This document shows positions 9,283 through 41,678 of a stretch of 48,162 nt of DNA, piece after piece. The first letter of the stretch is position 1; every line of letters begins with the position of its first letter. Under the pieces are notes generated by a model that worked only from the letters and a program-made list of their open reading frames with translations, searched no databases and was not told where the DNA came from. The translations under genes and the position numbers were made by a program. Source of the stretch: Microthyrium microscopicum. Its lineage: Eukaryota. The DNA lies in NCBI GenBank assembly GCA_010405405.1, contig MU004241.1, positions 744,001-792,162 on the forward strand, given 5' to 3'.

Positions 9283-9934
9283 ACTACAAGAATCAAGCGT
9301 CTATCAGGCCTCGTCACTTCAAGGCCCATAAACGTCGTTGAGAGCACGTGGCAATAGAAACCTAGAGCTTGGAGGAGCGCTTGTCCTCAATCAGTGGTCA
9401 AAGAAGCACAGCAGCTTGAGGACCGACGCGGTATACTGCTCCCTGTACCTGCGGAGCCGCAATCTCGACCTGCTCAAATACTTTAGTGGCCTCAAATAGC
9501 TCTCGTGGTTGTTTCTGCGCGGCAGCTGGCTGGATCTTTTTGAAGACAGACAAGGCAAACGATCATGTACCAAAAGCTGTGCCACATCCATGATCGAACG
9601 CAGCATCTACCTCGAAACAAGAAATGGCAGTTCTCCATGCTCATATAGATTTACATCGCAAATACCCACAAAATTCCACGGTTTTCAAGATCACCAGCCC
9701 TGTATCAAAATCTCCAAAACAGAAGAGCAGGGAAGATCATATCTCAGTCAAATGCCAAATGTTTTACCCGAGTATGATAAAAAGTTTCAAGAAAGTAATA
9801 GACCGCAGAAGCAGTGTATCAAAGACCAAGGACCTACATGACTATTGCTGTTCACTGAGAAAGCGGAAAGGGCCGGTCAGAGTCTAGGCTTGTCCCTTTC
9901 AGGGCATGCTACCAGAAGTGGTCTGATAGTCACA

Positions 9935-10147
9935 CAACGGCATGGCAAAATAAATGGCGTACTCCCATCAACTCTGATGGCGCCCAGAGGCTACGGTCTG
10001 CTATCGAGTGCTTTATTTGCCATAAAGGGCGTTTAGATTAAGAGTATTTATCAGATACGATGGGAATTTAAGCGCCTTTTGGTTAGCAGCGCTGGTGGTA
10101 GCCATCAGAGTTGATGGGAGTACGCCATTTATTTTGCCATGCCGTTG
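9935..10147. mobile_element. MITE copy 1: 213 bp, perfect 47-bp TIRs, 6-bp TSD GTCACA
   Basis: 9935-9981 CAACGGCATGGCAAAATAAATGGCGTACTCCCATCAACTCTGATGGC is the exact reverse complement of 10101-10147. GTCACA at 9929-9934 and 10148-10153. Confidence 0.92.
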
Positions 10148-10548
10148 GTCACACCACAAGAGCTCTGGCCGCGCTTAAGGTTAACTTGCATTATCTAGAT
10201 GCAAAAGAACTAAGTAAAGTCAGGTACCTAGTAGCTAACTATACTCCAAAGTAACCAAAGAGTTGTGTAGATCCATAAATTTTGACATAATAAGTGTGCA
10301 CTTCCCTTTCTACTGTAGTTAATGCTCCGCCTTTGCGCCAACCGTGCAAGGGATGAGCTTTTCCCTACTTCCATTGACACTTCTATTCTCACACAGAATA
10401 ATTATAGCCCTTGCTTCTCCACATTCAATAAAGTTACGAACAAAAGCTTGAGCACACCTGAAGAAACGCTACAGATTGATCATCCATCATTGTCATTTTA
10501 AAGGTGAGAGCTATTGGGTAGTAGTAGGTAGGAAAGCATCTTTCTAAC

Positions 10549-10968
10549 ATGTCTCTGAAAACAGCAAACTCAACTACGATAACTACATCAATGGAAAAAA
10601 ACACAGAAGAGAGCTTACAAACCGGAAAAGGAAGCAGAATCAAACCTCTCAGGAGGGAAGACTCATTGCCCACAAAGTCACAAACGGAAGGCGCTGCATC
10701 CGGAAGCTCAACTGATCTCAGGAATGCTCGGGGACCAAGGCAGGATTTGACTTCGACTATTGAGACTTCATCGCCCTCTGATCAAAGTTTGTCTGAATTC
10801 CTCAAAAGCAAGTACAAAGAGTTTTGTGCAAATCACGATAAGAGAGAAACACAAAGGGCCAAGGAATACGCTGAATATCGTCAAGCACGACTAACTAAAA
10901 TGAATACCAATCCCCACCAAACGGCAACGGAATCCCCACCAAACTATGATGATCTATATCCTAGATAA
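10549..10968 (+). CDS. small hypothetical hydrophilic protein with C-terminal PPxY motif
   Basis: 139-aa ATG ORF, Ser/Thr-rich, short charged helix, ends PPNYDDLYPR; no family recognised. Confidence 0.45.
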   Translation: MSLKTANSTTITTSMEKNTEESLQTGKGSRIKPLRREDSLPTKSQTEGAASGSSTDLRNARGPRQDLTSTIETSSPSDQSLSEFLKSKYKEFCANHDKRETQRAKEYAEYRQARLTKMNTNPHQTATESPPNYDDLYPR

Positions 10969-11246
10969 GACGCAAAGTCCTGGAGAGCAGCACTTCGGCC
11001 TGTAAGTAGCTCTTGTCGTAACGGCTGCTGTAACATTGTACAGTGTCTATTTGGGTCTAACGACATCTACTCTGTTTGACTAAGGGTATCGGGGAATCAT
11101 AATCATAGCATAAGGAGAACAAACATTCCTGTTAGTAAAGCTAGTACCCAAGGAATCGGAACGTGCTGGCTCGTCGCAGCAAAAAAGTTTCAACTGCACA
11201 AAACTGCAAGCAAATGCTTCATTCGCGAGAAATCTATTCTGATATA

Positions 11247-12692
11247 TCATTGAAGGTAATTGAGCGAACAATCAAACCGGTGGTCTGCCAGTTTTGACCT
11301 TAACCACGATGACATATCGATCCATCGTGCAGAAGAAAAGTCGTTTTGGTACTCCAGCAAGACTCTTTCCACATGCGTTCTTTTGGCTAGATCGTCCGTT
11401 ACAGCCAACGCTGCCATGAGAAAGAGCGGCATTGAACTGGATCCCAAAGGCCGGTATTGCGATGCTTGTTCGGCGAGATCTATTACGATGTCGACAAAAA
11501 TAGCTGACTCGTGTGCAAGAGAAATCGTCGGCTCATATGAACAAATCACTGCGTTCAGGATGATCGCAATGCAGAGCACAATTCCGTATGCTGTTGAGTA
11601 ACGGACGTGGTGTCTCCTAAGAATATGCAATGCGGACCCTGGTGTGTCTGGTGAGTGAAAGGCGTTTTGGATACTGGTGTGGACGGTTCTCATAGTCGCT
11701 GTATCCGCTTGCAGTTGTTGATAGTACACCCTTATTTCATTCCAATAAAGACTTGGATGCTGTAGAAATTCCGGAACTCGTGCCAATGCTCGAATCTTTA
11801 GGCTTTCAATGACAGACATGTCACTCGGCGCACTACGAGGTCCAAAATGCTCGGGAAATATCAATAACCAAGGCTCTAATCTTATTTTGGGATTGAAGAA
11901 GGACTCCATAATCTGGTTCAATATGAGTTTGAGCCCTTTCTAGATTACGAATGGCATGTACATACCGCAATGATAGTTAACGTAACTAGTAGGTCGGACT
12001 CAAATTGGCCTTCCCACTTATTAGGAACGGCAGCGTTCAAGAGATATGCCATGACTTCTCCATGATTCGGACACTGGTCGTCTCGTTTACCTATCCATCC
12101 CTTAACAATGATCAGTACCATTTGAATAGCAATCAGTTGATTACAAACATACTTGCAAAATCATTAATAGATATATAGCGCAAAGAGTCTCTGACGACCT
12201 AGTCTTCTCAGGGTCATCCAAGCAGACCCTGAGCATTTTCAATGCATATGAATAACTATCATATAGCTCCGGAGATACTTGGTGGGTACGAACTGAGGAA
12301 CTCGCTTTGGTAAGGGCGTACACTGATGCATCGAGCGCATCATTTGTTCCCATTCGTCTAGGTATCTCTTTGAAGAATGCCCCATAGATGCTCAAATCAT
12401 ATCGAATGTCGGTGACTTGCAGAGCCGACATAAATCCACTGGCTGCCAATGTCATAGCATTGCTAGGAGTCGGTGCTGGTGCGATGGCTTGTGTGGGGAT
12501 TGAGATTGCCTGCGATGATCCAGCAGCTGTCACAGCAACAGACTGGTTCTTGAACGTATATCTCTGCTCCCCGCTTCCAACACACTCTATTCGAAGACGC
12601 GTACATCTCGAGCAGGCTGGTTTCCCTTGATCACACTTCTTCTTCTGCTTGCGACAGGCTGCACAACCTTTGCCTGATGGAACGCCCGGCAT
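11247..12692 (-). CDS. Zn2Cys6 fungal transcription factor; exons 12692-12153, 12100-11966, 11912-11247
   Basis: MPGVPSGKGCAACRKQKKKCDQGKPACSRCTRLRIECVG. Introns 12101-12152 and 11913-11965 (both GTATGT...AG) give a continuous frame. Confidence 0.9.
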
Positions 12693-13148
12693 TTTGAAGC
12701 GCTAGGTTTTGCCCAAAGGAGATTGTGGACATTTTGAGAGATGTCCAGATGAGGTACGAATATTGACAATGCGCAGGTCGTTCTCCAAGAGTGACAAGGC
12801 ACAAACTGGTCGGCGCACGCGAGATCAACAATGACGTTCCATACAACCAACAGGGGTGCGATTGGCTGGCGCTCCATACAACCTGATTGAGACTAGCGCT
12901 GAGGCTTTTCGCAACCTCATGCATTACTTTGGAGCCGCTTCCTGCACAACTAAGTAATGCGCAGAGCATTAGTCTCTTGGCCAAGAGCTGTACAATCCGT
13001 GAGTGATATGTACTGGCAAGGTCGAAGAAGGAGCTACAGGGAACGAGACTCTTGAGGCTGAGGGCAAAGATCTACGCGTCTCTCGATTCCGCTGGCAATG
13101 CTAATTACGATTACGATTCTACGTTACATGATACCCGCAAGAACCTGA

Positions 13149-14969
13149 TCATGACTTCTTCAAGCTTATCCTCAAAGCAGCAGGACTAACAGCTATAGCC
13201 TTCCCATCAGATTCAACATCAAATACAAAGAGCGCTAACGCAATGCCACCATACGTCAGCGAGTCAAGCTCAAGCCAGTCCGGGCTGACGATTCCGTTTC
13301 CAGAGAATAGGCCCACCACTGGTTTGTTAGGTGCGTCAGTGGAGGTGACGAGTCTGAAAGCTTGCTTTCCATTCTTTGAGTCTGCAATCGAAGGCACCAG
13401 TCGATATGGGCCCGCCCCCAGAATGTTTGCCAAAACAGGAAGCACATCTGTGCCATTACTCTTCCACGATGTGATCACTAGACCCGGCGCAGCTGTCACG
13501 GTCTGGTTGATAGCTATGGTCAATGAAGACTCCATTCCTTGGACCGAGGAGGTGTATGTGCCTGCATACTTGCGTCCGCTTTCGACGACTGTCTCAGCAG
13601 CGATAGCTGGAACAACGGTTTCGGTGATCAGGTCTGCAATGGCGGCTACGACTGCGAACCGTCCTTTGACTGTGCCGGCTGTTAGGACAGAAAAGCCTAA
13701 ATCATAGTCCGGGATCAGGACAAAGGAAGCACTGTAGCTGCCAGAATCACCAAACTTGGTATAAATGTCTGTGACAGCGCCGCATGGGTGGATATATCGA
13801 AAGATTTCCCATGGTCGACCAACAGATGCTTGCAAACGAGCGGTATGAGAAGTTGGCTTCAACCACTTTCGAGTCTGATCCGGAGGAAGAATGGTTGAGT
13901 TCAAGATTGCATTGCCAAACACTGCCAGGTCGCGAGTGGTGGAAAGCAGCCCACCGGTGGCTACATTTACTCCAGCATCCAGAGCAAAGCCACTTGTAAC
14001 AGCATCACCAACGATGGCAGATCGTTGCCACTCAGATACCGGAGGTGTCGAGGAATTCGAGCCGGTCATACCAAGAGGGCCGAAGATGCTTTCTTGGTAT
14101 ATCTGATGTATGTCTTTACCGGTGGCATGAGCTATAGCTAGACCTAGCATTGCAAAACCATCATCAGCATAACCTGGAGTCGTCCATGGCAGAAACGATG
14201 GGTATCGAATCGAGGTATCCTGGACAAACGAGCTTTCAGAGCATGTCGCGCTTCCATCGATGATGGAGTTTACACATGAAGTGTAAGCTAATGGATCTTT
14301 TGGGCTAATAGGTGGCAGTCCTTCGGTATTCAGAGCGGCGAGACTGCCATTAGTCCCGGTAAGCTCCGCTGTGAGGGCCGCGATGAACAGGTCCGATCCG
14401 CTTGTCACATCATCTCGTGGAACCCCGGCAATTTGCGCTGCGAGGGCACTGATGGTGACTTTGCTCCAATCAACTCTGTATATCGGGCTGGCTTCGGCAG
14501 TGGATTTGGCTGCGAAGTTAGCCAGGCCGGGGATGATGTCAGAAAGAGGACGCTCCCAGTCTGTACTGTTCACTTCAAGCAAAGCGGCTAGAACAGTGAA
14601 AACTTTGGTCACGCTTGCAACGCGGTATATGGTGTCCGCATCTACCTTGTGTGTTCCGTTCGGTGAGTTGGCCACTTCGGGTCCGGTGTGATGGTATTGC
14701 AACTGTGTGGCGTTTGGGTCATGTAGCGAAAACATGCCCAGAGAAAAGGTGAGATTGGACAGCTTTGAAAGCTGACTTGAAGACGGTGCTTGGTTGCCAT
14801 TCTTCAGATATGTTTCGATGGTCGATGTGACGTTCTGCCAACTGGCTGGTACAAGACTTTGGCTGCTACTCAAATCTGTAGGTGGTACATATTTGGGTCC
14901 TAACAGGTCTGCGACGACTATCGTGGTGAATAGCGAAAGGAGAGGGAGGTAACGATAAGATATATGCAT
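13149..14969 (-). CDS. secreted serine beta-lactamase / penicillin-binding-like (alkaline D-peptidase-like) protein
   Basis: Signal peptide; DADTIYRVASVTKVFT (SxxK), LAAQIAG, GGLLSTTRDL, GRPWEI, YTKFGDSGSY; intronless, 606 aa. Confidence 0.88.
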   Translation of the reverse strand: MHISYRYLPLLSLFTTIVVADLLGPKYVPPTDLSSSQSLVPASWQNVTSTIETYLKNGNQAPSSSQLSKLSNLTFSLGMFSLHDPNATQLQYHHTGPEVANSPNGTHKVDADTIYRVASVTKVFTVLAALLEVNSTDWERPLSDIIPGLANFAAKSTAEASPIYRVDWSKVTISALAAQIAGVPRDDVTSGSDLFIAALTAELTGTNGSLAALNTEGLPPISPKDPLAYTSCVNSIIDGSATCSESSFVQDTSIRYPSFLPWTTPGYADDGFAMLGLAIAHATGKDIHQIYQESIFGPLGMTGSNSSTPPVSEWQRSAIVGDAVTSGFALDAGVNVATGGLLSTTRDLAVFGNAILNSTILPPDQTRKWLKPTSHTARLQASVGRPWEIFRYIHPCGAVTDIYTKFGDSGSYSASFVLIPDYDLGFSVLTAGTVKGRFAVVAAIADLITETVVPAIAAETVVESGRKYAGTYTSSVQGMESSLTIAINQTVTAAPGLVITSWKSNGTDVLPVLANILGAGPYRLVPSIADSKNGKQAFRLVTSTDAPNKPVVGLFSGNGIVSPDWLELDSLTYGGIALALFVFDVESDGKAIAVSPAALRISLKKS

Positions 14970-15898
14970 TTTGGCTATTTTGACTTTATAAGAGGAAGTT
15001 GAAGTTGTTCATGAGATGGTTTAGTCTTCTCATGCTTTAATTGGCAAGTAACGAGCTCTTATATGCTGACTTGAGATCATCGTTCGTGCGACCAGAACAA
15101 AATATGAAGTGGCTGAAGCTCATGAAATGGTTAAACGATGTCATCAGTGGAGTTCGTGAATTGACTTGCTGCGCCATGTCTGCCTTGGAATGTGTGCAAC
15201 GGCTACATACTGACATTAAGTACTCGTTGAATACTGGTACTAGAGGCTTACAGAACCGGCGTCTGGGCTACATGTAGATCTTGATCGTTGAAATGCGCTA
15301 GCCAAATCCAGTGTCACTGAGCGCTCGTGTTCGGTGGACACGGCGAGATCTTTAAATAGCCTAGGAACATATTTGCAGACGAGCTGCATTGAGGATCCAG
15401 ACCAACAACATGTCTGTCCAGCAACACTGAAAAAACCTGAGCTGCCACCAACATGTGTGCGATGAAAGAAGCCTGATGAATTGAGATACTGTCCGCCGTT
15501 TGTCGACATCTCCTAGTATGGGCAAAAGAATAAGTACATTGGTTTTTTGAAGAACAATCGAAGCAAAAACTGTTATTATGAATTAAGTAAGGCATCATCC
15601 AGAACAGAATATACAACGCGTCCTGCTTGCTGGGCCAATATCACTCAAAGTCGCAGGCTGTACTAATGCAAAAGCCGAAGCAATAGCACTCTTTCCAATT
15701 GGGAGTAACTAATATAAGCAGCGTTCCCAGTTCAAACAGTCGACGTCTCTCTCAATTAATTAGACACCGCCTCCCAATGCGGTTCCACCTCATGGATTGC
15801 AATAGCCAAACAGAGCAACAGCGTCCAATCCGTTCTTCAATAAATTTACCGTGGTAAGACAAAGACTCGAAAATCCACTCTCCACCGCAGTTTCCATC

Positions 15899-17170
15899 CT
15901 AGTCGAGCCGAAGGAATAGTCCCGTAGCTTCTATTCCAGGATCAGGTTCATCGTCACCGAACATCTGTTCCCACATCGGGGGCTCAGGAGTCCAAGGTTC
16001 GAGTAATCCACGAGATATCATTTCAGCCCGACCTCCATCGGACTGTGCCTCTGGAGTTGCCCGATCGAGTTGCTCGAACTTGCTTTCGTCGTCCGATGCA
16101 TCATCCTCCTCCGAGAGTTCCTCTAACACTTGTTTGCCAGGAGTCACTGTACCTGAGCTTTCGTCGCTGCAATTGCTCATGGTCTCCTCGTCGGTGGTGG
16201 TGTCCATGGAGTCTTCGTCGAATTCAGAGTCTATGGAACCTTCATCGGTGGCAGCATCCATCAAGTCTTCCTCGTCTTCATCTGCATCATTCTGCTCTAT
16301 TGCGTCGGCTAACCCTTCAATTCTAGCCAGCTCGTGGAGGTCCGCCATTTCCCAGATGAAGTTATACTGTTCCAACACGCCTGGATCTCCCGTAGTTGGG
16401 AGGTTGCCTAAGATCAAAGCAGCAAGCCAGTTGCGCTTCAAGGTGTGGACGAAGATGTTTCGATATGCATCACCCATAGCGCTTGTTCCTGGCCGATAGA
16501 TCTGTGCCATCCATCGTATCGGAGGTAGTGATTGACCAGCAAGAACGGCCTGTGGAAGATCCTGAGACTTGTAGCAAGCGCGAATCACATCTGGGAAAGC
16601 ATTGAGGGGGTCTGAGCCTGACTTGGGAGGTACGGCGGCTGGATCCGGGGTACAGACGTTGCCACCATGTAGCTGGCATGACTGACATGGGTGCGAACTA
16701 TCGCAAGCACGGTTGTGAAGCTGGCACTCGAGACATTTTCGGGTGCGATGAATCTTGAAGTCGCCGCAGTACTCCAGATGCACAGGTTTACGCGAGCCAA
16801 TGCGCCGACGATCAATGACGAGCCGGCGACCGTCCTCTGCGGGCTTCAGATCACAATAGTGATCAAGGGCTAATATGGAATGCGGAAATCGCTCGTAGCG
16901 TATCTGATTCTTGTACTTGAGGACCACAAAGAACGTGATGTATCGAAGATCTTGTGGTATCCCGGACCGAGTATCCTTTGGATAATCAGTATATCGAGGT
17001 AGATTGCTGGTCTTGCCAAAAGCTGATCTCTTCAGTGGGCCTGACTGCCGGGGCGGTCTTCCGTCGCGAAGTGTTGGGCAGTACCATTTTCGGAGCAAGG
17101 ATAATCGGCCAGATCTAGTGCCATTCTTGATAGTCTGGTCCTCGGGGATAGTGGTGTCGACAGATGACAT
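15899..17170 (-). CDS. hypothetical protein with internal Zn2Cys6-like cluster and acidic C-terminus
   Basis: First ATG at 17170; CLECQLHNRACDSSHPCQSCQLHGGNVC = C-x2-C-x6-C-x5-C-x2-C-x7-C; long D/E-rich tail. Confidence 0.7.
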   Translation of the reverse strand: MSSVDTTIPEDQTIKNGTRSGRLSLLRKWYCPTLRDGRPPRQSGPLKRSAFGKTSNLPRYTDYPKDTRSGIPQDLRYITFFVVLKYKNQIRYERFPHSILALDHYCDLKPAEDGRRLVIDRRRIGSRKPVHLEYCGDFKIHRTRKCLECQLHNRACDSSHPCQSCQLHGGNVCTPDPAAVPPKSGSDPLNAFPDVIRACYKSQDLPQAVLAGQSLPPIRWMAQIYRPGTSAMGDAYRNIFVHTLKRNWLAALILGNLPTTGDPGVLEQYNFIWEMADLHELARIEGLADAIEQNDADEDEEDLMDAATDEGSIDSEFDEDSMDTTTDEETMSNCSDESSGTVTPGKQVLEELSEEDDASDDESKFEQLDRATPEAQSDGGRAEMISRGLLEPWTPEPPMWEQMFGDDEPDPGIEATGLFLRLD

Positions 17171-18338
17171 GATGCAAGATAAATTATTCGTGGATAGGAG
17201 GCGGTAAAGCACAGAATTGCCTATCGATGAGGTAGGAACCGCAGTGAAAGTAGTATAATTGTCGCGTGAAGAAGCCGATATGTTTTAACTTGTCCGGACT
17301 GAAGGAATATATGCTTTTGGCAATGTGCAGAAGTTATGTGCTATGAGTTGGGATTGGAGAAAGGAAGCTTCATTGTTATAAAAGTGGTGTTTGGGAAATT
17401 AGGCGGACGACATAGCATCTAATGGAAGCTAATAGAGCTCAAGGAGAATGTTATCAAGTTATAACAGGCAACAACGAGCAGTGACCATTTTGACCCATTG
17501 CATGGCGACTTCCTCGCATGGTAGGGACTACCTTTTAAGAGGCAGATGATAAAGGCAGTCGCCACCAATGCCTACAATGTGCGAGGAAGGAGCCATCTTT
17601 AGCCATTGATTCACTGCTCTAACAGGTAAGGTCTGTCCGTCTAGTATGGAACCTTGATGAAAGCTTATATCGAAGCTGATACTGCTGTTCCTTTGCGGTT
17701 GCGCTACAGTCATTCAGATATACACGTCTAAGACCTTTGGGTATACGCTTTGCACTTAACTGTGCCTGCCCGTGACATATTTTTACCTCTACGTTGCGGG
17801 TGTAGGAAGCATGTCGCATATCAGTATTCCGGAGGTTAATGTACCGCCAGCAAAACCAGGACGTGATGTTGAAGGGGCATATGTTCAACTTCCGGTAGAT
17901 AGACCGCAGAGACTCACGCCAGTGGCAGTATATTGTTTCCGGCAGAAACATGCAATATACGGCTGCGCCCAGAGGAGACAAAAATTCGAGAACCAAGGAC
18001 GCAGTTGAATGCAATGAAGGTTCCTGTTGGACTGCAAAATAAATGGTTGAAGCGGAGAGGCGAATGGTTCGTTGTCCTGTTCAGTTGTGGAAGCGCAACT
18101 TCAAGAATATATAGAGGAAGAGTACTTTGGCAGAGTTATATATCAGACTGTGAAACCGTCTTGGGATATGTTAACCAAAGTTACATAGAGCGCTGCTCAT
18201 CGTGCTGAAGAGCTGCATTCTTGAGCTTTTTGGGGACTGATATTCATCTGATGAAAAAGTGCTTCCCAAAAGTCCTTCTCTACGATATAGCAAGCATAGA
18301 GTACGTACTGTTTGTGGTACCACAAAGCAACAATCCAA

Positions 18339-19257
18339 CTACTGCGACAACCAAAAGTTGAACCACTCAACTATTCCGCGATAGCTTTGCTCCTTGACAT
18401 AACGCTCATACGGATCTTCCAAGTTGCATCTGACCGCAAATCCGTGAGAGACTCCCTGGAACAACTGAACTTGATACTTCTTTTGTCCTTCTTCCAAGAT
18501 TGCCTGTGCTTTGTTTCTTTTGCCTGGAGGAAATGCGTGATCCTTTTCGGCACAGCTAAGCAGCAAAGGCTTGTCGACGTTTTGGAATTGCTCTTCTGTT
18601 AGACTACCTGGATGTGCAAAGGCTCCCGCACTGATGAAACCCTTGGTAAGAGAGTCTAGAACGTATGTAGCACCAAAGCAGTAGCCAGCACAGACATACT
18701 TCGTGGTGTCTTTGCCGTATTTATCAGCAATTGCCTTGGTCCACTTGGGCACTGTTGCTTTGGCAAATGCGACGTGCTTGTCACGCCAGGCGGCGCGATC
18801 AAAGTCGGGCTTTACGCTCTTGTCTGCGTTTTGATGTTTCCAGATGGGGTCCTAGGCAAATTAGCATCTGCGTGAATTAGGACACTTTCCAAGCTCCATG
18901 ACTTTCTCAATCGCAACGAGAAGCAGTGTGATCTCTTAACCAATTCCGAAAATCTTATGAGGTTGAATAGTTCCACAATGAAGAACTTACATCTCTAAAA
19001 TAATCAATGCCAAAGACATGGTAGCCAGCATCAGCGAAAGCATCCATCAGCAGCAGAGAGTTGTTGTAGAATCCATGAACGTCAGGATAGTAGAACAAGA
19101 TATTGCCGTTGTCATTTCCATGCTGTGGAGTAGTGATATACGTAGGTGCTTCTTCAATGGTTTCAGTTTTGCCACGGGTGTCTCCAGTATGGAGGTTGCC
19201 AGAGAGGCAGTGGTCGCCCGGCGGGATCGCAAGATAGGTCTCTGCTGGTGGGGCCAT
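18339..19257 (-). CDS. dienelactone hydrolase family protein; exons 19257-18991, 18851-18339
   Basis: ILFYYPDVHG, GYCFGA nucleophile motif, AHPG, AEKDHAF, GVSHGFAVR; 139-nt intron 18852-18990 (GTAAGT...CTAAT...TAG). Confidence 0.92.
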
Positions 19258-20542
19258 GCTGAAGGCTGAGGACGAAAACTATGGAGTTGGTTATTCGCTT
19301 TGTGCCAAGCTATCAATTTATATACCCCTGGGATGAGTTGTTGTAGTAAGGATTCTTGATGCCGTTTAAAAGACGTAAACAAGAAGGGCAACAGTGAATG
19401 CCGTAATCGGCTCGGCATATTCGTACACCGAAGCTGAGAAACATGTTCAACTGTCAAGCATTAAATACCTCAGAATTTCAAATCGAAAGTCTATTCACGT
19501 TTGACGGTTTCCCAGGAATATGCTGGAGTTGATAATTATCTACAACGCCTGTTTGGTTTCCAGAAACAAAGAAGAAGTCCAGCAAAATGATGTGTGGCAG
19601 GCTTTAGAGCTTGTATCAACTGTTTCTTGAACAAGAGACCTTTTTTTGAAAGCTGAAAAAGAGCGATTGCTTGAATATCAAGTTTCTGGATACAGTACAG
19701 GAAAAACAGAAAACTGATTGATTAACGTGCCGAATTGTATTGTGATTTAGTAACGTTACAAAAGACAAAGACTTCAGTCCTGGCCATTCAGCGTATCACA
19801 AGACGGGTTGCGAAGGGGGTATTCTAGTTTTGGATTTGCCATGAGCAATTATGATTTCTACAAAATTTGAAGAAAATCGTGGAATCAATATTCCATTTTT
19901 CATTTCTACTGATGGAGAGTAGCAAAGCGCAACCAAGCTTAAAGAAGCATTTGTTGATACATTCTACCCATCGCAAATCTGAACTCTTCCACCGGAATCG
20001 AAGGAGCATCTTGTTGAACTTCAAAATCGAATTGGTTGACGAGATGATCGACCAGGCGATCCAACATATTCCATAATATCCGTACGTTTCAAATTCAAAC
20101 TTCGGTGGGATTTCAAAGTTCTCTTCAGGCATAGGATCGCACACCGGAGGATTTCACTGTTCTCTCCAGCCATAAGCTCGCACACCAGAGCGTATCGTAT
20201 ACTTAGTGTCTAAAGTTGTGGTCGATGCTGGTCCGTAGCCATCATTGTAATAGATGAATTGCTTATGTTAGAACGGAAGTCACTGATCATGTCGGAAGCT
20301 GTTGCCACACGTTTGGAAAAAACAGTATAGGGGCCCTTGAGTAGCTTAGTTGAAGGTTTATTTCATTGCTGAGAGCTAAATACTTTTTGTGTAAACGATT
20401 CTGTCTTCACGTTCTTCTGATCCCCACCCCCTAAGACCCATTCTTTGCAATTTCTCGGTTCGAGTAAGAGCTGATTTTTACCACGACTATCCTAGTAATG
20501 CTATCCATCACCAGAATCAACAATGAATATTTGTCAAGCAGC

Positions 20543-21121
20543 CTAATTGATTTGTACGCGGCGAGGCTGCTTGGCCTTGGCCTTCGGAACCGTCAGGCTG
20601 AGAACACCATTTTTCAGTTTGGCTATAACAGCATCCTGGTCGACGACGCTAGGGAACTGGAACGTTCTATGGAACGAGCCAAAGCTACGTTCAGTGATGA
20701 GGTATTTTGGAGCGTTGGCGCCATTTTGGACAATGTCCTTAACCTTATTGGTCTTCGTCACCTCGTTGGAATTGGACTTTTTGTCAGTGGACTCGGTTTC
20801 TCCTTCGTCCTGCATGGTGGGATTCTGATACAGCGTGCTGGATTCGGAGTTGCTGTGCTCACTGCGATGCTCGGTTTGGCCTGAGATGGTCAAGGTGTTA
20901 TGGTCGGACCATTCGATGTTGATGTTCTCCTGCTCAAGGCCAGGTAATTCGCCGTGAAGCTCGTAGGCATCCGTAGTTTCTTGAATATCGAAGCGAGGAG
21001 TAAAAGAGCGGAAGCTCTGGTTGTCGAGGCCTGAGCGAACGGCACGTTCCAGCTCATCAGAGAGATTGAAGAGAGAGGTGATCTCTGGTTGACTGGTGTG
21101 GCGCGGGAAGAAAAGAGACAT
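20543..21121 (-). CDS. small heat shock protein (HSP20 family, Hsp30-like)
   Basis: MSLFFPR..., FTPRFDIQET...YELHGELPG, ERSFGSFHRTFQFP, LKNGVLSLTVPK, C-terminal VQI motif. An in-frame upstream ATG exists at 21238. Confidence 0.93.
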   Translation of the reverse strand: MSLFFPRHTSQPEITSLFNLSDELERAVRSGLDNQSFRSFTPRFDIQETTDAYELHGELPGLEQENINIEWSDHNTLTISGQTEHRSEHSNSESSTLYQNPTMQDEGETESTDKKSNSNEVTKTNKVKDIVQNGANAPKYLITERSFGSFHRTFQFPSVVDQDAVIAKLKNGVLSLTVPKAKAKQPRRVQIN

Positions 21122-21294
21122 TTTTGGAGCTTGAGTGAAAAGTTTTCTGGACTCTGTGATTCCACGAGGAATAAATTTGTTTGTATGAAATTTTGCTAGC
21201 TTTGGAGTCTTGCTAATGGTTCGTCTCAACTGATGCATGAAGTTGTCTGTGGAGGGGAGATGGAGGAAGCATCTTTCCAAGCTCATCACGGTGG

Positions 21295-21302
21295 ATTATA
21301 TA
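21295..21302 (-). promoter_or_regulatory. TATA box of the HSP20 gene
   Basis: minus strand TATATAAT, ~175 bp upstream of ATG 21121 and just downstream of the HSEs. Confidence 0.6.
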
Positions 21303-21316
21303 CCCATCAATGAGGA

Positions 21317-21326
21317 GTTCTAGAAG
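21317..21326. promoter_or_regulatory. proximal heat-shock element (2 units)
   Basis: GTTCTAGAAG = nTTCn nGAAn, 15 bp from the TATA box. Confidence 0.6.
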
Positions 21327-21411
21327 GCTCCAGATGTTCATGTTCGTATTCCATGATGAAAACATTCCGACCTCAACGAAGGTCACTGAAACAACTCGAT
21401 GATTCTTCAAC

Positions 21412-21426
21412 TTTCTAGAAATTTCG
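21412..21426. promoter_or_regulatory. perfect 3-unit heat-shock element (HSF site)
   Basis: TTTCT AGAAA TTTCG = nTTCn nGAAn nTTCn upstream of the HSP20 gene. Confidence 0.75.
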
Positions 21427-22101
21427 ATCCAATAAGGCAGTTGACGCCGACCAGTATTGAACCCAAAAATGCATCAAGATGACAGGGCATAAAATAAGTC
21501 ATCAACTCATATCGGACTACCTATCAATTTACTTAATTCATAAGATTTGCTCCTGGTCCAGGCCATATCATCCTTCCAATGTGGGCAGATGTCTAAACTG
21601 ACCCCTGACCATCGTTGCTTTGCCCTGCAAAACCATGGAATTTAGGGGTCACTGATATTGGAATGTAAAGGCAATCGAATACTACTCAAGTATTCAAGCT
21701 GTATAAGTCTCGTCTGTTTGTCCTTCAAGTTTGAAGTCGCTTGGTTTCTGGAATATTGTAGCATATAAAATTGCATCACCAATTACCATCATGCTTTCAT
21801 GCTTTCATGATCATTTGAATATAGTAGTAGTAGTAGCTACTAGGCCCGCTGGCATACTGCATTCGATCCTTGTAAAGCGCATATTCTTGTTAATGGTTCT
21901 TCTAGAAAGTGTAGGTGAATGAAATCATAACAGCAGGAGTGGTTGGCCAAGGAGTGTCTCGAAAGGCTATGGCCACGAGTCATAATATAGGAGCTTAACG
22001 TTCAAAACTTCAGTGACAACAATCTACTTCATATTGTTCAAATTCACGATGGGGTTTTACGAGGTGAAATGAAGTTACCTTAGTGGCATAAAGGCTACTG
22101 T

Positions 22102-22313
22102 CAACCGGTGGACAAAATAATTGGCGTGCCCCCATCAACTTTAATGGCTTCCATAAACGCTACTAAACAGAAAATGCTATACTTTCTATTGCGTTCAACA
22201 AACTGTAGCAGTATGAACGCACTTTATGGAAATAAAGCACTTAGTTGCAAAGCGTGTCATATGGGAGCCATCAGACTTGATGGGAGCACGCCAGTTATTT
22301 TGTCCACTGGTTG
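22102..22313. mobile_element. MITE copy 2: 212 bp, ~54-bp imperfect TIRs, 6-bp TSD TACTGT; opposite orientation to copy 1
   Basis: 22102-22155 vs 22260-22313 inverted (7 mismatches, 6 transitions). TACTGT at 22096-22101 and 22314-22319. Its reverse complement is colinear with copy 1. Confidence 0.9.
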
Positions 22314-22515
22314 TACTGTGTACGCTTTTGCCCTTGCCGCACTCGCTTGCCTAATACCATTGCACGATCTATGATGTATGGGCATGACTCAGGCCAGAGT
22401 CCTATTACCGAACACATTTATATCTGTTTATGCAACCAATAGTTGGTAGTTTAACGTAGACATTGCAAGTAATCAAAACTCCAACACTATAACTTATACT
22501 TTGGAGGATCCAGCC

Positions 22516-23556
22516 ATGCCGTCCAGTACTGGATCACAGACTTGGCCTGATAGCACAGAGGGAGATTATGAAACCAAGAATTTCACCTTTCTCGATGGCA
22601 GTACTCTTCCGGTACTCAGGCTTCATTACCGCACATTAGGAGCACCCAAGCTCAATGAATCCGGCCAGACCACTAATGCAATTCTGATCATGCATGGCAC
22701 AACTGGATCCAGCGCAAACTTCTTGTCACCACAATTCGCAGGCGAATTGTTCAACCCGGGCCAGCTCTTTGACTCCAAAAAGTACTATATCATCATTCGC
22801 GACGGTATTGGCCATGGCGGAAGCAGCAAACCCTCCGATGGGCTCAAAGCCAATTTCCCAGGATACGGATATCAAGATATGGTCCGCGCAGACTATGAAC
22901 TTGTCACCAAAGGTCTCGGAGTAAATCACCTCAGACTTGTCATGGGAACATCAATGGGTGGAATGCACAGTTGGCTTTGGGCGGGCATGTATCCCGATTT
23001 CATGGACGCAGCGATGCCGCTTGCTTCTCTTCCGACGCAAATATCAGGCCGCAACCGGATGCTTAGAAAAATGGTTGAAGATGCTGTTCGTGGAGATCCA
23101 GAGTGGAACAATGGAAACTATAAGCGCAGTACCGATGTTCGAGGCTTCACTACAGCACTATATGTTCTCAGCATAATGTCAAGCGTCCCCTTTCAGTGGC
23201 AAAAGGCTGCGCCAGATCGCGAAAGTGCAGACAATTTTCTAGACAAGTGGATTACGGACCACACGGCTGGCGTCGACTGCAATGACTTCTTGTATGCGTT
23301 TGAAGCAAGTCGAGATTATGATCCTCGGCCACTGTTGGAGAAGATCGAAGTACCATTCTTAGCGATTAACACTGCCGATGATCAGGTCAATCCGCCAGAG
23401 TTGGGCATACTAGAAGATGGCATCAAGAAAGTTAAGCGCGGACGATGTGTGGTGTACCCGCATAGCGAGAACTTGAGAGGTCATGCCTCGCATTCATGGG
23501 CCAATATTTGGCTCGAAGAAGCCAAACGCCTCATGCATGAGAGCGAGAAGCATTAA
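22516..23556 (+). CDS. alpha/beta hydrolase, homoserine O-acetyltransferase (MetX)-like, bacterial-type
   Basis: LRLHYRTLG, LIMHGTTGS, DGIGHGGSSKPSDG, LVMGTSMGGMH (GxSxGG), INTADD and RGH triad residues; intronless. Confidence 0.88.
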   Translation: MPSSTGSQTWPDSTEGDYETKNFTFLDGSTLPVLRLHYRTLGAPKLNESGQTTNAILIMHGTTGSSANFLSPQFAGELFNPGQLFDSKKYYIIIRDGIGHGGSSKPSDGLKANFPGYGYQDMVRADYELVTKGLGVNHLRLVMGTSMGGMHSWLWAGMYPDFMDAAMPLASLPTQISGRNRMLRKMVEDAVRGDPEWNNGNYKRSTDVRGFTTALYVLSIMSSVPFQWQKAAPDRESADNFLDKWITDHTAGVDCNDFLYAFEASRDYDPRPLLEKIEVPFLAINTADDQVNPPELGILEDGIKKVKRGRCVVYPHSENLRGHASHSWANIWLEEAKRLMHESEKH

Positions 23557-23581
23557 GAAATGAAGTCGATGGAGAAAAAGT

Positions 23582-25140
23582 CTAAATCAATGATATATCC
23601 TCGACTGGAAACAGTTCGCTTTCAAATGCTTCCCCTAGCATTATTCCATGAACATAGCATTCGCCCACTAGGAAAAACTCCTTCTTATCAGATTCCACTC
23701 GGCGAAGAAGGAAGGGTACATTGCAGCCATGAAGAATTGCTATCTTATCGCCCGGTTTGGCTGATAAAGGAAACAGCCTGGCGTATTTGTAAAGTGTGAC
23801 TCCAAAGAGATGCTTATTGAAGGTATAGCTAAGACTTTGCACATACTCGGCACAATGCATAGGCCCTGTGGACGTGGGATCGCCGTTGCCGATGATAGAT
23901 AGTGATAGCGTTGACAAAGATCGCAATATTTCTTGCTTCCAGCCTCGCCACCCCCAGACGTATAGCCAAACAGCAATTGTGGACACGCTGGCAAATAAGG
24001 GAGCAAATTTAAATCCGAGAACAAGAACAAATGTTGTCGAACATGTTGGTAGGTCGCATGTCGCGAAGATGACCGTGACAATGAGTAGGTCTATCCAAAG
24101 CGGAAGCTTGATGATCAATAGGATGATCACAAGAAAGATTGAAGCGCGAAATCGCATATCAAGAGAGTACGCTTGGGGTCCTAGTTTTTTCAGCATTTTG
24201 TACTGTTAGACATAGCCTTTTGGAGCATTTCCGTCGCTTCTTGGGTCGTTCAGAATAAGCGTACGCCATATCACTTCTTCACCTCGCTACACCCGAATTC
24301 TTTCTGATATAGTTGACTACGGAACTTCCCAACGTATGTTTTGCTGATAATTTAACCGCTGCTATCCTTACTCGAGAACCTACGACAAGCTATCAGATTG
24401 CTTGGCAAGGCTGAGAAGATGACGAACAAGGCTGAAACAATAGGCGAGGAGGATATTTGAATACCATAATGCAGATATCCACCAAGCGGAAGGAGATCCT
24501 GATTTCTAATATGGTTTCTGGAGATAAGACTGCCTTCAAAAGGTGACTTTATTTCCTTCGGGTGTTTTCGCTCTTTGGTGTGTTCGCTTCATGTTTCTCG
24601 AATAGCGTGGAACAAACCCCTTGCTGTTTTTGAATCTTGGTCTGCTTCGGACGTCAAAACATTGATCTTATCAGCAACCTTACTTGCAGGTATATCCCGA
24701 TACAATGGCTATATTTGTCTTCGTCTGACACAATCAACCTTACCCTTCTCTTCGTGGACAAAATAAGTGAGCCGTTTCGATAACTACTTCCATCCATTGC
24801 GATGGCTGCCATAACACTTCTTGAAGAGTGATTGCTTTAATCCCATCAGCGTCGTAAGATTATATTAATTCATCCTATACGATAGTAATCAAAGTAGTCA
24901 CTTTTTAGGAAGTGTTATGCCAACCATCGCAATCGATGGGAGTAGTGGTCGAAACGGCTCACTTATTTTGTCTCTCGAGAGCCCTTCTAGAGATCTTTGG
25001 AGTGGATTCTGCATGAGCATTTAATCTTCTCTGTGCATCTATAACTGCATCCCTGTGGATCATGTTTCCCTGGTCTACTCAAAAGTATTATTGAAGATAA
25101 GAATAGTTCGTTGATCCCATCAAGGTAGAAACAACAGCCT
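23582..25140 (-). pseudogene. HET-6-like heterokaryon-incompatibility gene relic (5' boundary approximate)
   Basis: C-terminal HET-6-type motif GDKIAILHGCNVPFLLR...FLVGECYVHGIMLGEA. The upstream in-frame EEVIWRTLILND motif (~24255-24283) is cut off by TAA at 24206-24208. The 5' part is degraded and overlaps MITE 3. Confidence 0.7.
24748..24981. mobile_element. MITE copy 3 (related subfamily): ~233 bp, 82-bp imperfect inverted arms, 5-7 bp flanking direct repeat CCCTT(CT)
   Basis: 24757-24838 inverted vs 24891-24972. Arms begin GACAAAATAA and contain TACTYCCATC-n6-GATGG as in copies 1 and 2. CCCTTCT at 24743-24749 and 24982-24988. Confidence 0.82.
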
Positions 25141-35710: not shown

Positions 35711-36859
35711 TGTGAACGTATGCCGTTGAAATGAAATAAGTGGTCAGTGATGTAGTACGATGAATTGTTGAGGGGAAACAATCCGATAAAGTAGGCGCAT
35801 GGACCATAAAACGGCTTTTGAATGGAATACTGGCAAAGTGCCAAAGATATAATTGTTGCGAAAGAAGGACCTTCAACCAGGAAGTGGGTATCGTGACCTG
35901 TACAGTTAAGGTGAAGTTGTTGTTAACTTCAAATTGTTGCAAGGTTGTAAACTTTGGTAGATGCCGATGAATGATTGTTGGGGACCAAAACAACCTTAGC
36001 GGGCCTTGGCGGTGTGGGCAACCGTTGTTCCACGGTTAATTAATAATCAACCATCGAACCACAGTTAGTTAAATTTTAATCGTCTTTTGACCGTTAGGAA
36101 ACATATATGTTGGTGAAGCCTTATCGTAGGCTAATGGTTAAATAATCTGCCAACGTTTATAGGTAATAATCGTTAAATGATAGTTAATTGACTATATAAC
36201 TATTAAATAAGTGTTAGTCTAATTAGTAAATATTAATTAGTAGTTAGCCTAGATTTTAACTATTTAATATTAGTAAGCTAAAGATTAACTATTAGTTAAT
36301 AGCGTAGTAAGTAAAGCTTAGCGCTATATACCTACTTATCTTAATTTTAAGATGTAAAGTCTTACTTCTTCTTTTTTTAGATTAGGCTAATATATTTATA
36401 AAGTTTTAAGCGTTTATTATATCTATTTAGCTTATTTTTAGATCCTATTTTTATATCTTGTTTTTACGTCTCGCTTTTATAATGTCGTTTTTTATACTTT
36501 TTTTTAAAAAGTTTATTTACTATGCCTTCTCCTTTGCTAATAAAGTAAGTAGCTACTAGTTTATTTAATAAACCTCCTAAGAAGTAACTTTAAAAGTTGT
36601 AAAATTTTTTTATAAAATATCTACTCTAGATATATATATATTTAATTAAATATCTCTAATATACTTCTCTATACTTTACTATAATTATTTATTACGTTAT
36701 ATACTTTCTTTTTTACTTATACTAATATACTTATTATACTTTAGCTTTATATAATTCTTAATTACCTTATATACCTTTACTTATTACTATTTATATACTT
36801 ATTACTACTATATAGGCTATTTTATTATAAAGTATACTTATATATATAATAAATATTAA

Positions 36860-38360
36860 CTATAAAAATAGACTCTTAATAATAATAATAATAATAATAA
36901 AGAAGAAGATAAAGTTAATCTATATACTAGTCTAGCTATTAAACTAGTAGTACCTATAAAGAAAGTTTAGCCTTTAAAGAAGGCTAAAGAGTTTATAGCT
37001 AGTTATACTATTACTAAGTTTATTACTAACGTAATAACTATTAAGTTAATAAATAATTAAGCTTTTTATAAGCTTAAGTAGGAGCTATTTTTATATAGCC
37101 TACTTAGAGATAAAGATTTAGAAGTATACTAAGTAGTCTAATAAGATAAGATAATCTAGAAAGAGGATCTAAGATTTATAGCTTTCTATCTAAAATATAG
37201 ATAGCGTACGTAAATAATAAAAAATACTATAGTTATAGCTATCTAAGTAAGTAAACTATTTCCTTTCTTTTCCTTTCCTTTTATTCTTATATATACCTAA
37301 TACTATACTTCTCCTTTCCTTTTATTCTTATATATACTTAATACTATATTTCTTTATCTTATTATATTCTACTCTATTTTACTTTATTATATTCTATATA
37401 ATCTTATATTACTATTCTATTCTATATTGCTACTCTACTATATAATATTACTTATATATAATAGATATTAATATATATAAATAGAAATACGTTTAAGTCT
37501 TTATAGAGGTAAAACCTAAGTTAGTTAATATAACTATAAATAGCTAGAAAAGTTATTTAAAATAAGTTTTTAATACTAAAATTTTTTTATTTTATTATAA
37601 TTTCCTAATAGGCTACTTAGACGCCTAAAAGATAATTACTAAGAAGATTACTAGCTCTTACTATATAGAGTATATATATATATACCTTTTCTTTTCTTCT
37701 CTTACCTTTTTTTTTCTTCTTTTACTTTTTCTTTCTTTCCTTTCCTTTTCTTTCCTTTACTTTTCTATCTCTTTCTATTATATAGGTATCTTAGATATTT
37801 TTCTATTAATAAGTTAGGTTTATATTCTAGTAACTTCTTTCTATTTATTAATTTATTTATCTATCTATTAGTAGATAGCTATAGCTATATACTATCCTTA
37901 AATCTTACTAGTAGTCTATCTATATATACTAATATATAACTATAGATTTCTATATAAACCTTTACTTAGTAGTGAAGAATACTTTTATAAATATAAAGTT
38001 TAAAGATAGTTAAGTAAAGATAATTGCTTAGTTTAACTAGATACTTAGTTATAAAAATTTTCGTAATATTAAGAAATCCTTATTTATAAAGGTTATAGTT
38101 TTTAAGTTAAAGAAAGCTTACGTAGCTTAAAAGGAGCTTATTGCTACTAAGCTTATAGTAATATTATTTAATTTAGAACCTCTAAATCCCTTATTTAAGA
38201 ATAAAGGGGATAATAATAAAGATAAAGATAAGGATAAGAATAAAGATAAAGATAAAGAGTTAGTAGAGAGTAAGGATAGAGAAGGTAGAATAAGTAATAA
38301 TAGAGAAAGTAATAATAATAAAGAGCCTCTTAAAGAGAATAGCCTTAGGGCCTTTAGTTA
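36860..38360 (+). pseudogene. RIP-destroyed multi-exon gene of unknown family
   Basis: (AAT)n AAA GAA GAA GAT reads as a former D/E run. GTAAGT donor at ~37247 followed by a T-rich repeat intron; second pyrimidine-rich intron ~37670-37786; GATAAA/GATAAG acidic run at ~38210-38260. Confidence 0.4.
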
Positions 38361-41300
38361 AAGTTAGTATTTTTATTTTAGTACTTTATAGTTTATAGTT
38401 TTAGCATAGTGTTTAGAGTCTTTGTTTTTTATTTTTGTTCTTTCGTTTAGGCTTTACCTTTATTTACTTATTTTGTACTACTTCTTCTCTTCTTTCTTTA
38501 TTTCTCTTATTTATCTCTTTCTTAGATTTTATCCTTAGGGTTATTATAAGTTATAGATAGTATTTATTTAATTGTGTCTAAATAACTTAGACCTAGGCAT
38601 AAATAGAAATAGATAGTAGTTTTAGCTTAGTATTTAGTAGTATAGTTTTAGTATAGGTATATTTCCTAATTAGATAATCTTTTAAAGACTAGGATAGTTA
38701 TAGTCTTAGGCCTTATCTTATACTATATAGCTATCTAGATATTCTTTATAGTTTATAATTTAGAGGTCTAATAGTAATCCTAGACGTTAAAGTAATTAGT
38801 GACTAAGACTATATAATAATGCTCTTAGTCTAAACTATCCTAGTTATAAGTTCTTATTATCTTTCTCTATAATAAGGTATATTTAGTTATTAATTGTCCT
38901 AATATCTAGGATATAGCTATAAGTAAGTAGCACCTTAGATATTATATTAAACTCTTTTAGTATATTTAATAAGAATAACGTGCTAGTTTTATTTAGAGTT
39001 TTAGTTACTACTAAGCTTAATCTAAGCTATAGTAGCTATGCTTATTAGACGTTAATATTAATAGATTATTTATAAGGGCTAAATGTTTTAAATATATCTA
39101 TATTTAATAGAATGCTACTATAGGATATTATATCTAACCTATATAGTTTAAATGCTTTTAACGTAGCTAGGGGCTATAGTAATATTTTAGAACTAGATAG
39201 TCTTACCTTAGTGTTTATAATTAGTCTAATTTATACTAATAGAGAGTATAATACTAATAGATTTAACTCTAAGGTAAATAGATAAAGGTATTATAAGTAT
39301 AATTATAATATAATAATATATAGATAGTATTTATTATTTATATAAGTTAATTTTTCTATTCTTACTTAGCTTAAGGCGTTTACTATCTAATAACTATATT
39401 ATTATTTATTATATTAATAGCTTCTAAATCCTCTACTTCTTCTTCTACTATACTAATAGTAGCTTTTACTTTAACTAGCGCTTTAAAGGCGTAAGCTTTT
39501 AGCTATATGTCGTTTTTAGTCTTAAAGGACTACTTTATTTTTAGAATTAAGCTTATTGCCTCTTCTAGGTATCTAATTGCCTTTTATATTATAAGAATAG
39601 TTAGTTATTATGTATACTATAGTAATATAGTTAAGATTTACTTATTAGTAGTAGTAGTAGTAGTAGTAGTAGTAATAAATAGTTAAAAGTAGCTACTAAA
39701 TCTATATAGTCTAGATAACTAGAACTTAATAACTTGTCTAATTAGATACTTAATAGTAATAGGGAAGACCCTAAAGGAGAAGAGGAGATAAGGAATAGCG
39801 CTTATAAGGATATATCTATTAGTTTATAATTAAATTAGTACGTAAATAATTTTTTTAGAGGTATAAAAGTAGAGTAAAGAATAGAGTGTTGTTATATTTT
39901 AGATAAGTTATATTATATAAAGCTCTATGCTATAGTTTCTACTAGAATTCCTTACTATTGTGTCTTCTATTTATAAGTAAAAGTCTAAAGGTAGTATATA
40001 TAAAAGTTTATAGGCCTCTTTATATAATTTCTAGCTATATATAGTAGTAAGATTTAACTAGATCTTAAGTTAGTTAGGTTAACTATTATAGACTTATAGA
40101 CTAATTAATAGAGACCTATATAATTATATATTTATATATCTTTTAATAATATAGTAAATTGCGTCGCTATATAATATTATTAGACTTAATAACTATAAAA
40201 GCTAATATTTCTTTATATTAAGTAACTCTAATAAGAATATATTATTTATATTAAATATTATTTAGTATAAGCTTCTTATATTTTAATAAGCTAGTAGTAT
40301 ATAATAAAGGGATATAGAGATTTAGGTAGTTTCTATATATAGTAAAGCCGTATAGAGGTTTCTATAAGTATTATATATATATCTAAGAGCGTAAGAGGTC
40401 TAATTTAGACTATAGTCTAGAGAAGTTAGAGTAAAACCTTCCTATAGTATATACGAAGTATTCTAAAGGCTAAATTAGGGTATTATTATAGTAGTAAAGC
40501 GTACTAAAAGCTATGCTAAGGCGTATTAGTCTTAGATAAAAGTAAGTATTATAATAAATTAATTCTTACTATATATATATACTAGTAAATAATATCTAAT
40601 AAGGTAGAGTAAGAAATATAACAAAATTAATATATTGTATATAATTTAATACTAAATGTTAGAAAATAACTTAATTAGGAAGCCTAAAGCAATAGATACT
40701 TAGACTTAGTAATGCTTTTATACGTTTAATAGTAAAGGTATTAACTAATAATTATATCTTTTTATTATATAGTAGGATTACTTTAGCTAAGGGTTAAATT
40801 ATTTAACTAATAGCTTAATTGCTTTAATTAATAGTAGCTTTATTCTAGCTAATAGTAATAGACTATAGCAAAAGTAATTATACTAAGATTATAATATTTA
40901 GGCTAGAAAACTTAAATTTTACTATATAAGATAAAGTATATAGGTATAATAAAGGATATATAATCTAGACTAGACTTATATATATTACTAATCCTTAATA
41001 TTAAGCTATTACTTACTTATAAAAAAGATATACTATTATATATAAGACTAGGTTTATATATTTTACTACTATAGTAATATATACTAGCTAGGTTATTCTA
41101 ATAATATTAGTATATTATGCTATAAGTTTATATACTCTATTTAAGGCTAATACGCTATAATATATAAAGCTAATATAATTAAAGTAGAAGAAGGTTATAC
41201 TACTATAGTTAAAATAATAATCTATAAAGCTACTATAAATAAGTAAAGTAAGTATATACTACTACTATAAAAATATATAATAATAAGGAGATAAAAGTTA

Positions 41301-41608
41301 TATAATTAAGCTAAAGCTAAAGAAGGACATAATAATTATAATAATGTTTTAGTTCTTTCTAGCTAGAAGATTATATAAAAGTAATATATTAGTAAATAGA
41401 TGTAATATATAGAGATCCTAAAATAGAATAGTAATTTAAAATAATTATAATACTTAGTATCTCTAAATAATTAGTAAAGTTATACTACTATATAAGCTAG
41501 TAAGCTTTCTAGTTATGCTAGTTACCTAATATAGTAATAGGTAAATAAGTAGCTAAGGCTACCCTAAATTTTAGAGTTAATTAAAGCGCTCTATAGAGCT
41601 AAAAGATA

Positions 41609-41678
41609 AAGCTAATTAGTAATCTAATAAGCTAATTAATAATCTAATAAGCTAATTAGTAATCTAATAAGCTAATTA
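41609..41678. repeat. 20-bp tandem repeat x3.5
   Basis: (AAGCTAATTARTAATCTAAT)n. Confidence 0.85.

Follow-up and report, generated by a model that had tools for sequence, protein, structure and literature searches.

Two sister families of short non-coding MITEs with 5- or 6-bp target site duplications in the genome of Microthyrium microscopicum

The window considered here, a stretch of 48,162 nucleotides of Microthyrium microscopicum DNA (assembly GCA_010405405.1, contig MU004241.1, positions 744,001 to 792,162 of the forward strand), carries three MITEs (miniature inverted-repeat transposable elements), designated A, B and C. They represent two sister families of non-coding MITEs, A/B and C, which have spread through an ascomycete genome competent for repeat-induced point mutation (RIP). 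All three are situated between long open frames: A lies behind an MFS-like gene, C ahead of an MFS gene, and B is flanked by divergent HSP20 and alpha/beta-hydrolase frames. None of the frames of at least 100 aa listed for the window overlaps A, B or C, and a search of Rfam gave no match for the MITEs. The assembly comprises 37 Mb; the frames of the window are intron-split and of fungal type, and an AT-rich block with a GC content of about 0.22 begins at approximately 36 kb, which together suggest that the host is an ascomycete with RIP. The elements, their target site duplications (TSDs), their terminal inverted repeats (TIRs) and their conserved motifs are positioned in the window as follows.

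9929..9934, left TSD of A (GTCACA)
9935..10147, plus strand, MITE copy A, 213 bp, CAAC…GTTG ends, perfect 47-bp TIR, young subfamily
9944..9953, plus strand, conserved subterminal motif GRCAAAATAA in A, with a mirror copy at 10129-10138
9965..9980, outer dyad CCATC-n6-GATGG, left arm of A
10102..10117, outer dyad, right arm of A
10148..10153, right TSD of A
22096..22101, left TSD of B (TACTGT)
22102..22313, minus strand, MITE copy B, 212 bp, older subfamily of the family of A
22132..22147, imperfect dyad (one mismatch), left arm of B
22268..22283, outer dyad, right arm of B
22314..22319, right TSD of B
24743..24747, left TSD of C (CCCTT, 5 bp)
24748..24981, plus strand, MITE copy C, 234 bp, CTCT…AGAG ends, sister family
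24790-24805 and 24924-24939, dyads of C
24982..24986, right TSD of C

The initial annotation had placed A and B, with their lengths and 6-bp TSDs, exactly, and had described them as colinear over their full length in opposite orientations with one indel; indeed, A aligns end to end with reverse-complemented B, with a single 1-bp gap and 72% identity. C, regarded there as a third copy of the same family, does carry GRCAAAATAA and the dyad, but it ends in CTCT…AGAG, is bordered by a 5-bp TSD and belongs to a sister family, being about 58% identical to A/B and having a spacer 12 bp longer. The GRCAAAATAA motif occurs six times in the window, once in each arm of A, B and C (chance mean 0.30). Since identity between an element and its own reverse complement amounts to 76-80% in all three (A is approximately 77% self-complementary over its full length), A, B and C consist essentially of two arms of about 100 bp, and the fold of A reaches -133.8 kcal/mol (z -19.7). 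The internal palindromic motif previously noted in A and B amounts to a 6-bp stem of -2.6 kcal/mol.

The dyad had been described as a small stem-loop present in every arm, a statement that is accurate for five of the six arms of A, B and C, in which CCATC-n6-GATGG is perfect (chance mean 0.04), the exception being the mismatched left arm of B. The dyad appears in the centroid DNA fold of four of these six arms; in the wider sample it is perfect in 49/102 A/B arms and 12/34 C arms. The five core pairs are fixed in sequence and spacing, both-side changes being found in at most three arms per pair, which indicates no covariation. The unpaired neighbours of the dyad are as conserved as the core, and a further ATC-n6-GAT core is found at position 116 of the A consensus. 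Arm positions 5, 7, 8, 9 and 11 are variable, and positions 12-19 are nearly fixed. Because neither the sequence nor the spacing of the core varies, its flanks are conserved and it is found again inside the element, the dyad looks like a putative double-stranded protein-binding site located at a fixed distance from the cut, rather than a hairpin.

Genome searches with A, B and C yielded 225, 110 and 60 first-look candidates, respectively, of which the best 40 of each were scored, so that all copy counts are lower bounds. At least 131 distinct MITE copies are present in the genome, namely 103 paired copies (74 A/B and 29 C) and 28 further copies (17 A/B and 11 C), in agreement with the earlier proposal of a non-autonomous, high-copy family. 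The TIR-bounded elements range from 212 to 236 bp, with A/B copies of about 213 bp and C copies of about 236 bp; 41 of the 48 A/B copies classed by TSD measure 212-213 bp. The A/B family comprises four main subfamilies, all 212-213 bp long, with a median pairwise identity of 69% (98.6% for the closest pair). Copies of the A subfamily diverge by 0.5-11% from their own consensus, and their C-to-T changes are raised at CpA (0.072) and CpG (0.064) as compared with 0.022-0.034. Nevertheless, the mean GC content over the 103 MITE copies is 45%, as opposed to about 22% in RIP blocks; RIP typically requires repeats longer than 400 bp (PMC4522978). The depth of the contig over A is far above that of its flanks, although this depth is not a copy number.

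TSD lengths were counted only in strict copies, those that retain the first three bases at each end, which left out 28 A/B and 20 C copies. The 63 strict A/B copies include 25 with an exact 5-bp and 22 with an exact 6-bp TSD, six of each length with one mismatch, and four with neither; the exact 6-bp TSD previously put forward as a rule of the family is therefore refuted. Among 20 strict C copies, nine have an exact 5-bp and none an exact 6-bp TSD, five are near-5, one is near-6, one is ambiguous and four are neither (two of these having exact 4-bp TSDs). In an overlapping set of 62 A/B copies, flank shuffling gave chance expectations of 0.11 and 0.02 for exact 5- and 6-bp TSDs, and no exact TSD of 7-12 bp was found. 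Exact 2-bp matches (2/62, 4.5 expected) and 3-bp matches (1/62, 1.1 expected) correspond neither to the TA duplication of Tc1/mariner nor to the TSD of PIF/Harbinger. Both lengths occur in all four A/B subfamilies and are mixed on a tree of 48 A/B copies, requiring 14 changes as against 15.9 when shuffled (107/500 shuffles as low), which implies that TSD length is set at each insertion and is not inherited. In Drosophila, the modal TSD length accounts for 94-99.8% of insertions in TIR and long terminal repeat (LTR) families with many insertions (PMC3276498, Table 3). Multi-length TSDs nonetheless have a precedent in IS481EU, where several discrete lengths (about 4, 15 and 25 bp) occur within one family (PMC10045372). 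Five runs checked for empty sites contained no joint across an element; four of them were possibly the source itself and the fifth consisted of mere scraps.

The sequence surrounding the insertions bears a common signature. Counting outward from the TSD edge, position -2 is occupied by C in 0/54 half-sites of the 5-bp class, 0/42 of the 6-bp class and 0/24 of family C, where the background is 0.216 (P about 2e-13); position -2 was picked after inspection of the data, and the significance survives correction for 24 positions. By comparison, C occupies this position in 8/54 and 14/42 half-sites of a wrong-register control and in 5/24 half-sites of 12 Mutator-like element (MULE) insertions of the same genome. 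Held-out copies gave 1/26 in the strict set (P 0.015) and 1/12 in the non-strict set (not significant alone), and earlier non-strict copies gave 1/12, bringing the total to 3/170 half-sites over both TSD classes and family C. In addition, T is favoured at -3 and G at -1; the target of the 5-bp class combines T/A at -3 and G/A at -1 with a purine as the first base of the TSD, and C never stands at -2. A/B and C insert into a weak palindrome that can be approximated as W-(not C)-R, then 5 or 6 nt, then Y-(not G)-W. The -2 signature bears out both TSD lengths without recourse to the duplications themselves, and, being shared, it links family C with an enzyme of the same kind in spite of its different end bases, which points to one transposase lineage with a cut stagger of 5 or 6.

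In the mechanism that we propose, a cut-and-paste DDE transposase would move A/B and C in trans, binding GRCAAAATAA (positions 10-19) together with the repeated ATC-n6-GAT dyads in double-stranded DNA and cutting at a terminal C. The two active sites would each read the target 2-3 bases beyond their own joint, and a joint-to-joint spacing of 5 or 6 bp would allow one enzyme to leave both footprints. The enzyme most likely belonged to a group with C(A)-starting ends, whether CMCT/Transib-like, hAT-like or P-like; its autonomous copies were probably destroyed by RIP or lost, and the short MITEs would largely escape RIP. Mobilization by a DDE enzyme is very highly probable, and the involvement of one enzyme with a flexible stagger is probable, while the chances that this enzyme came from the CA..TG-type clade are evenly balanced. 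Taken as a whole, an in-trans cut-and-paste DDE transposase with a 5-or-6 stagger, likeliest from the group with C(A)-starting ends, is modestly favoured. A possibility to be entertained with more reserve is that of an undescribed fungal cut-and-paste lineage, which would tolerate CAAC or CTCT ends, recognize GRCAAAATAA and ATC-n6-GAT, cut with a near-equal 5/6-bp stagger and read the target outside the joints in an integrase-like manner.

Several observations weigh against this proposal. Since no autonomous element or transposase was found, the enzyme class is read from cis features only, and family C starts with CT, not CA. The target motif is as close to that of retroviral integrases as to any other. 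The exact 5:6 ratio differs between the families (9:0 in C, 21:17 in A/B, P 0.017), and purine at -1 differs between the TSD-length classes, 5- and 6-bp (34/42 versus 17/34, P 0.007); both differences would also fit two enzymes, although the -1 difference might just as well reflect an influence of the target sequence on the stagger. The copies sampled were the best matches per search and hence not random. The sixth dyad pair alternates among 102 arms (A-T in 51, G-C in 23, A-C mismatch in 19), a weak point in favour of a hairpin. Furthermore, Transib is reported as absent from fungi (PMC5751038), and the Plavaka, Transposase_21 and KDZ searches were blank, although their controls were below the cut-off as well and RIP may conceal genes of this kind.

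The search for an autonomous parent with MITE ends was negative over the profiles listed below, those of Tc1/Fot1, piggyBac, Kolobok, Academ, rve, Clr5 and P-element not having been searched. Pattern searches of the own genome were also negative but unreliable, as they missed known copies, and a RIP-tolerant scan for MITE ends at 41 loci gave no score above 3.5 bits. No MITE-like TIR was detected at the 15 loci scanned among 19 hAT matches, most of which stopped short of an end; the two hAT ends that were recovered start with CAGGG and read CAGGGTTGTG, unlike the MITE ends. One RIP-mutated hAT contains an inserted 872-bp element (L114:2126-2997) that has CATCG…CGATG ends and is flanked by TA. 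Likewise, no MITE TIR was present in the 18 regions fetched for 19 MULE matches, and 12 MULE copies of the genome have G..C-type ends and exact 9-bp TSDs. These MULEs (L174-L191) form several distinct families, mostly of about 3 kb, with long TIRs, exact 9-bp TSDs and unequal RIP mutation. KDZ (PF18758) gave no match, its controls being silent or under the cut-off too; the same was true of Transposase_21 and Plavaka (PF02992, PF18759), with controls likewise under the cut-off, and of rva_4, with silent controls. DDE_Tnp_4 gave one weak match, the ends of which are unrelated to the MITEs, and the single insertion examined of an IS3EU-like element on this contig is bounded by TA..TA termini and a 6-bp TSD, with C at -2 on either side. 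As anticipated, the MITEs thus match none of the MULE, hAT and IS3EU-like elements examined in the genome. No MITE-like end was found at 32 edges of AT-rich blocks (some counted twice). Metagenome scans for the MITE gave 0 and then 46 single, chance-like matches without BLAST support; among other collections, viral sequences gave one match, prokaryote genomes 0 and plasmids none.

An integrase-type DDE driver with atypical ends, either IS3EU/GingerRoot or Ginger-like, is an unlikely source of these elements, although the 5-bp-class target does resemble the HIV-1 motif (-3)TDG|(G/V)TWA(C/B)CHA and integrases span TSDs of 4-6 bp (PMC4422553; PMC3526291). The likeness to the HIV-1 target lies in T at -3 and G at -1, in the avoidance of C at -2 and in anchoring at each joint (PMC4422553), but the MITEs have neither an LTR nor a 3'-CA end; it is a likeness of target working and not of membership. 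The IS3EU-like element on the contig, a single insertion, has other ends and C at -2, and the rva_4 search was blank, as were its controls. A T/A preference 2-3 bases outside the TSD is not unique to integrases, since it is also found in P and hAT elements. IS3EU/GingerRoot elements, including REP9/Styx, share with the MITEs a 6-bp TSD, TIRs longer than 30 bp and occurrence in ascomycetes (PMC10045372, PMC8232023, PMC10853768). However, IS3EU ends are given as always TA..TA and those of GingerRoot as TA..TA or TG..CA in PMC10045372, and the 6-bp TSD is nearly fixed (33/36 copies of REP9/Styx; PMC8232023), whereas the MITEs have CA..TG or CT..AG ends and about half of them have 5-bp TSDs. The link to IS3EU, Polinton or Dada that the initial annotation drew from the 6-bp TSD is accordingly weak.

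Two related transposases, with 5- and 6-bp staggers, might both have moved A/B, the 5-bp enzyme alone moving C, which we consider somewhat less likely still. The 9:0 ratio in C, the unlike -1 preference of the two classes and the single TSD length that is normal in Drosophila agree with this explanation, but both enzymes would have needed to be active together through four subfamilies with a median identity of 69%, and the -2/-3 signature is the same in both TSD classes. It is quite improbable that the parent was an ordinary lineage of fungal hATs in which the TSD is shortened, as in hAT5, hAT6 or hAT7. The ends of hAT elements start with YA and carry subterminal repeats, which speaks for this origin. 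Families with 5-, 6- and 7-bp TSDs also exist, but with one length per group, so that the 5/6 mix fits none described in PMC12730594, where hAT5 and hAT6 are moreover grouped among animal hATs. The standard 8-bp TSD of hAT is not found in the MITEs, the two hAT ends recovered here differ from theirs, none of the 15 scanned loci, most of which stop short of an end, has a MITE-like TIR, and family C starts with CT. The interpretation offered initially, namely one family with a fixed 6-bp TSD and single-stranded hairpin arms, accords with the exact 6-bp TSDs in A and B and with the hairpin in the centroid fold of four arms; it is nevertheless very improbable, as exact 5-bp TSDs outnumber exact 6-bp ones and the dyad is often imperfect, with both-side changes of its core being rare.

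In the CMCT clade (EnSpm, Transib, Plavaka, ESTA and Lanisha), ends are mostly CA..TG and TSDs measure 2-5 bp (PMC12730594, section 3.1.6); the ends agree with A/B but not with C, and the 5-bp class falls within this range and the 6-bp class outside it. Its fungal members are described with 2-3 bp TSDs and CAC, CATCA or TGT ends (PMC12730594), and no transposase is linked to the MITEs here. The clade is further marked by a transposase with C(2)C and H(3-4)H motifs, for which PF02992 and PF18759 gave no match, their controls being under the cut-off. The MITE ends may also bear some likeness to Transib/RSS motifs. Kyakuja (KDZ) elements have CA..TG ends but a 7-bp TSD and no TIRs, in contrast to the MITEs, which possess TIRs and have no exact 7-bp TSD. 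The G..C ends and 9-bp TSD of Mutator are likewise absent from the MITEs, which have no TSDs of 8-9 bp. We know of no paper that documents the 5-bp TSD of Hupfer, and a TSD range of 5-6 bp for IS1634 was not confirmed, only the 6-bp case being supported.

Among fungal MITEs, the EFT elements of Epichloe festucae are similarly short, non-coding, TIR-bounded, degenerate and high-copy elements of an ascomycete, but the TSDs given in PMC3227409 are TA, AT, TWY, 8 or 9 bp, none being of 5 or 6 bp. Families 375 and 819 of Zymoseptoria tritici are unclassified ascomycete MITEs with TSDs of 6 bp (375) and 5 bp (819) (PMC4522978, Table S1); the '5-6-bp TSDs' in the text of that paper correspond to this one 6-bp and one 5-bp family, without a mix. 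Compared by description only, they differ from A/B and C in having one TSD length each, lengths of 74 and 511 bp and TIRs of 19 and 41 bp. Searches of the open literature on fungal MITEs and TSD length, which covered few subscription journals and neither Repbase nor Dfam, listed no description of A/B or C.

TSD length serves as a near-fixed family signature, and a family divided approximately 50:50 between 5- and 6-bp TSDs, yet sharing a single target signature, would represent a naturally occurring example of flexible strand-transfer geometry. What is new here is the target signature, the tree test and sister family C, and it is the near-even 5/6 split combined with one edge-anchored target motif that a specialist would notice. 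Together with the dyads and the 'no C at -2' rule, the ends provide a fingerprint by which the parent transposase could be sought in other fungal genomes; without the parent, this is one more unclassified fungal MITE family.

Individual MITE loci show further features. The copies appear clustered, with several within 10-70 kb (G000:C8:1.708-1.719 Mb, C17:0.33-0.38 Mb and C4:0.16-0.23 Mb), an impression formed without a random model. Ten partial or end-trimmed matches were extended, of which nine proved to be truncated, degenerate or internally duplicated MITEs and one a copy with an insert. At L071:369-802, an old A/B copy lies nested within a second A/B copy, with a C copy some 700 bp away. 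One C copy (L066:1493-1728) has, instead of a 5-bp TSD, a flanking duplication of about 18 bp that takes in the first bases of the element, and another (L200:1804-2204, G000:C3) contains a unit of about 82 bp, present three times, that runs between dyad-like motifs. A 797-bp C copy with an exact 5-bp TSD (L198:1273-2069, G000:C13) carries a 560-bp insert in its right arm, which is unique among the fetched loci, lies between 6-bp direct repeats and contains a 118-aa frame with a C2H2-finger-like motif; it is either a captured gene fragment or a later insertion. Its identification as a transposase was rejected, as Pfam, the word index and Atlas gave no match other than weak C2H2-finger-like and repeat matches. 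At L037:620-1495, 5 bp from a B copy, a frame containing the motif GYSQG, which we take to be cutinase-like, is enclosed by a truncated left end and a right arm; this arrangement was rejected as a single element because there is no shared TSD. Finally, the RIP-mutated AT-rich block of the window (35993-48162, continuing to about G000:C12:798115) extends over approximately 18 kb and has a perfect 19-bp TIR starting with CC, unlike the MITE ends, a possible 2-bp TSD (AA) and repeated subterminal motifs; it is presumably a separate transposon, for which CACTA-like is a candidate label only.

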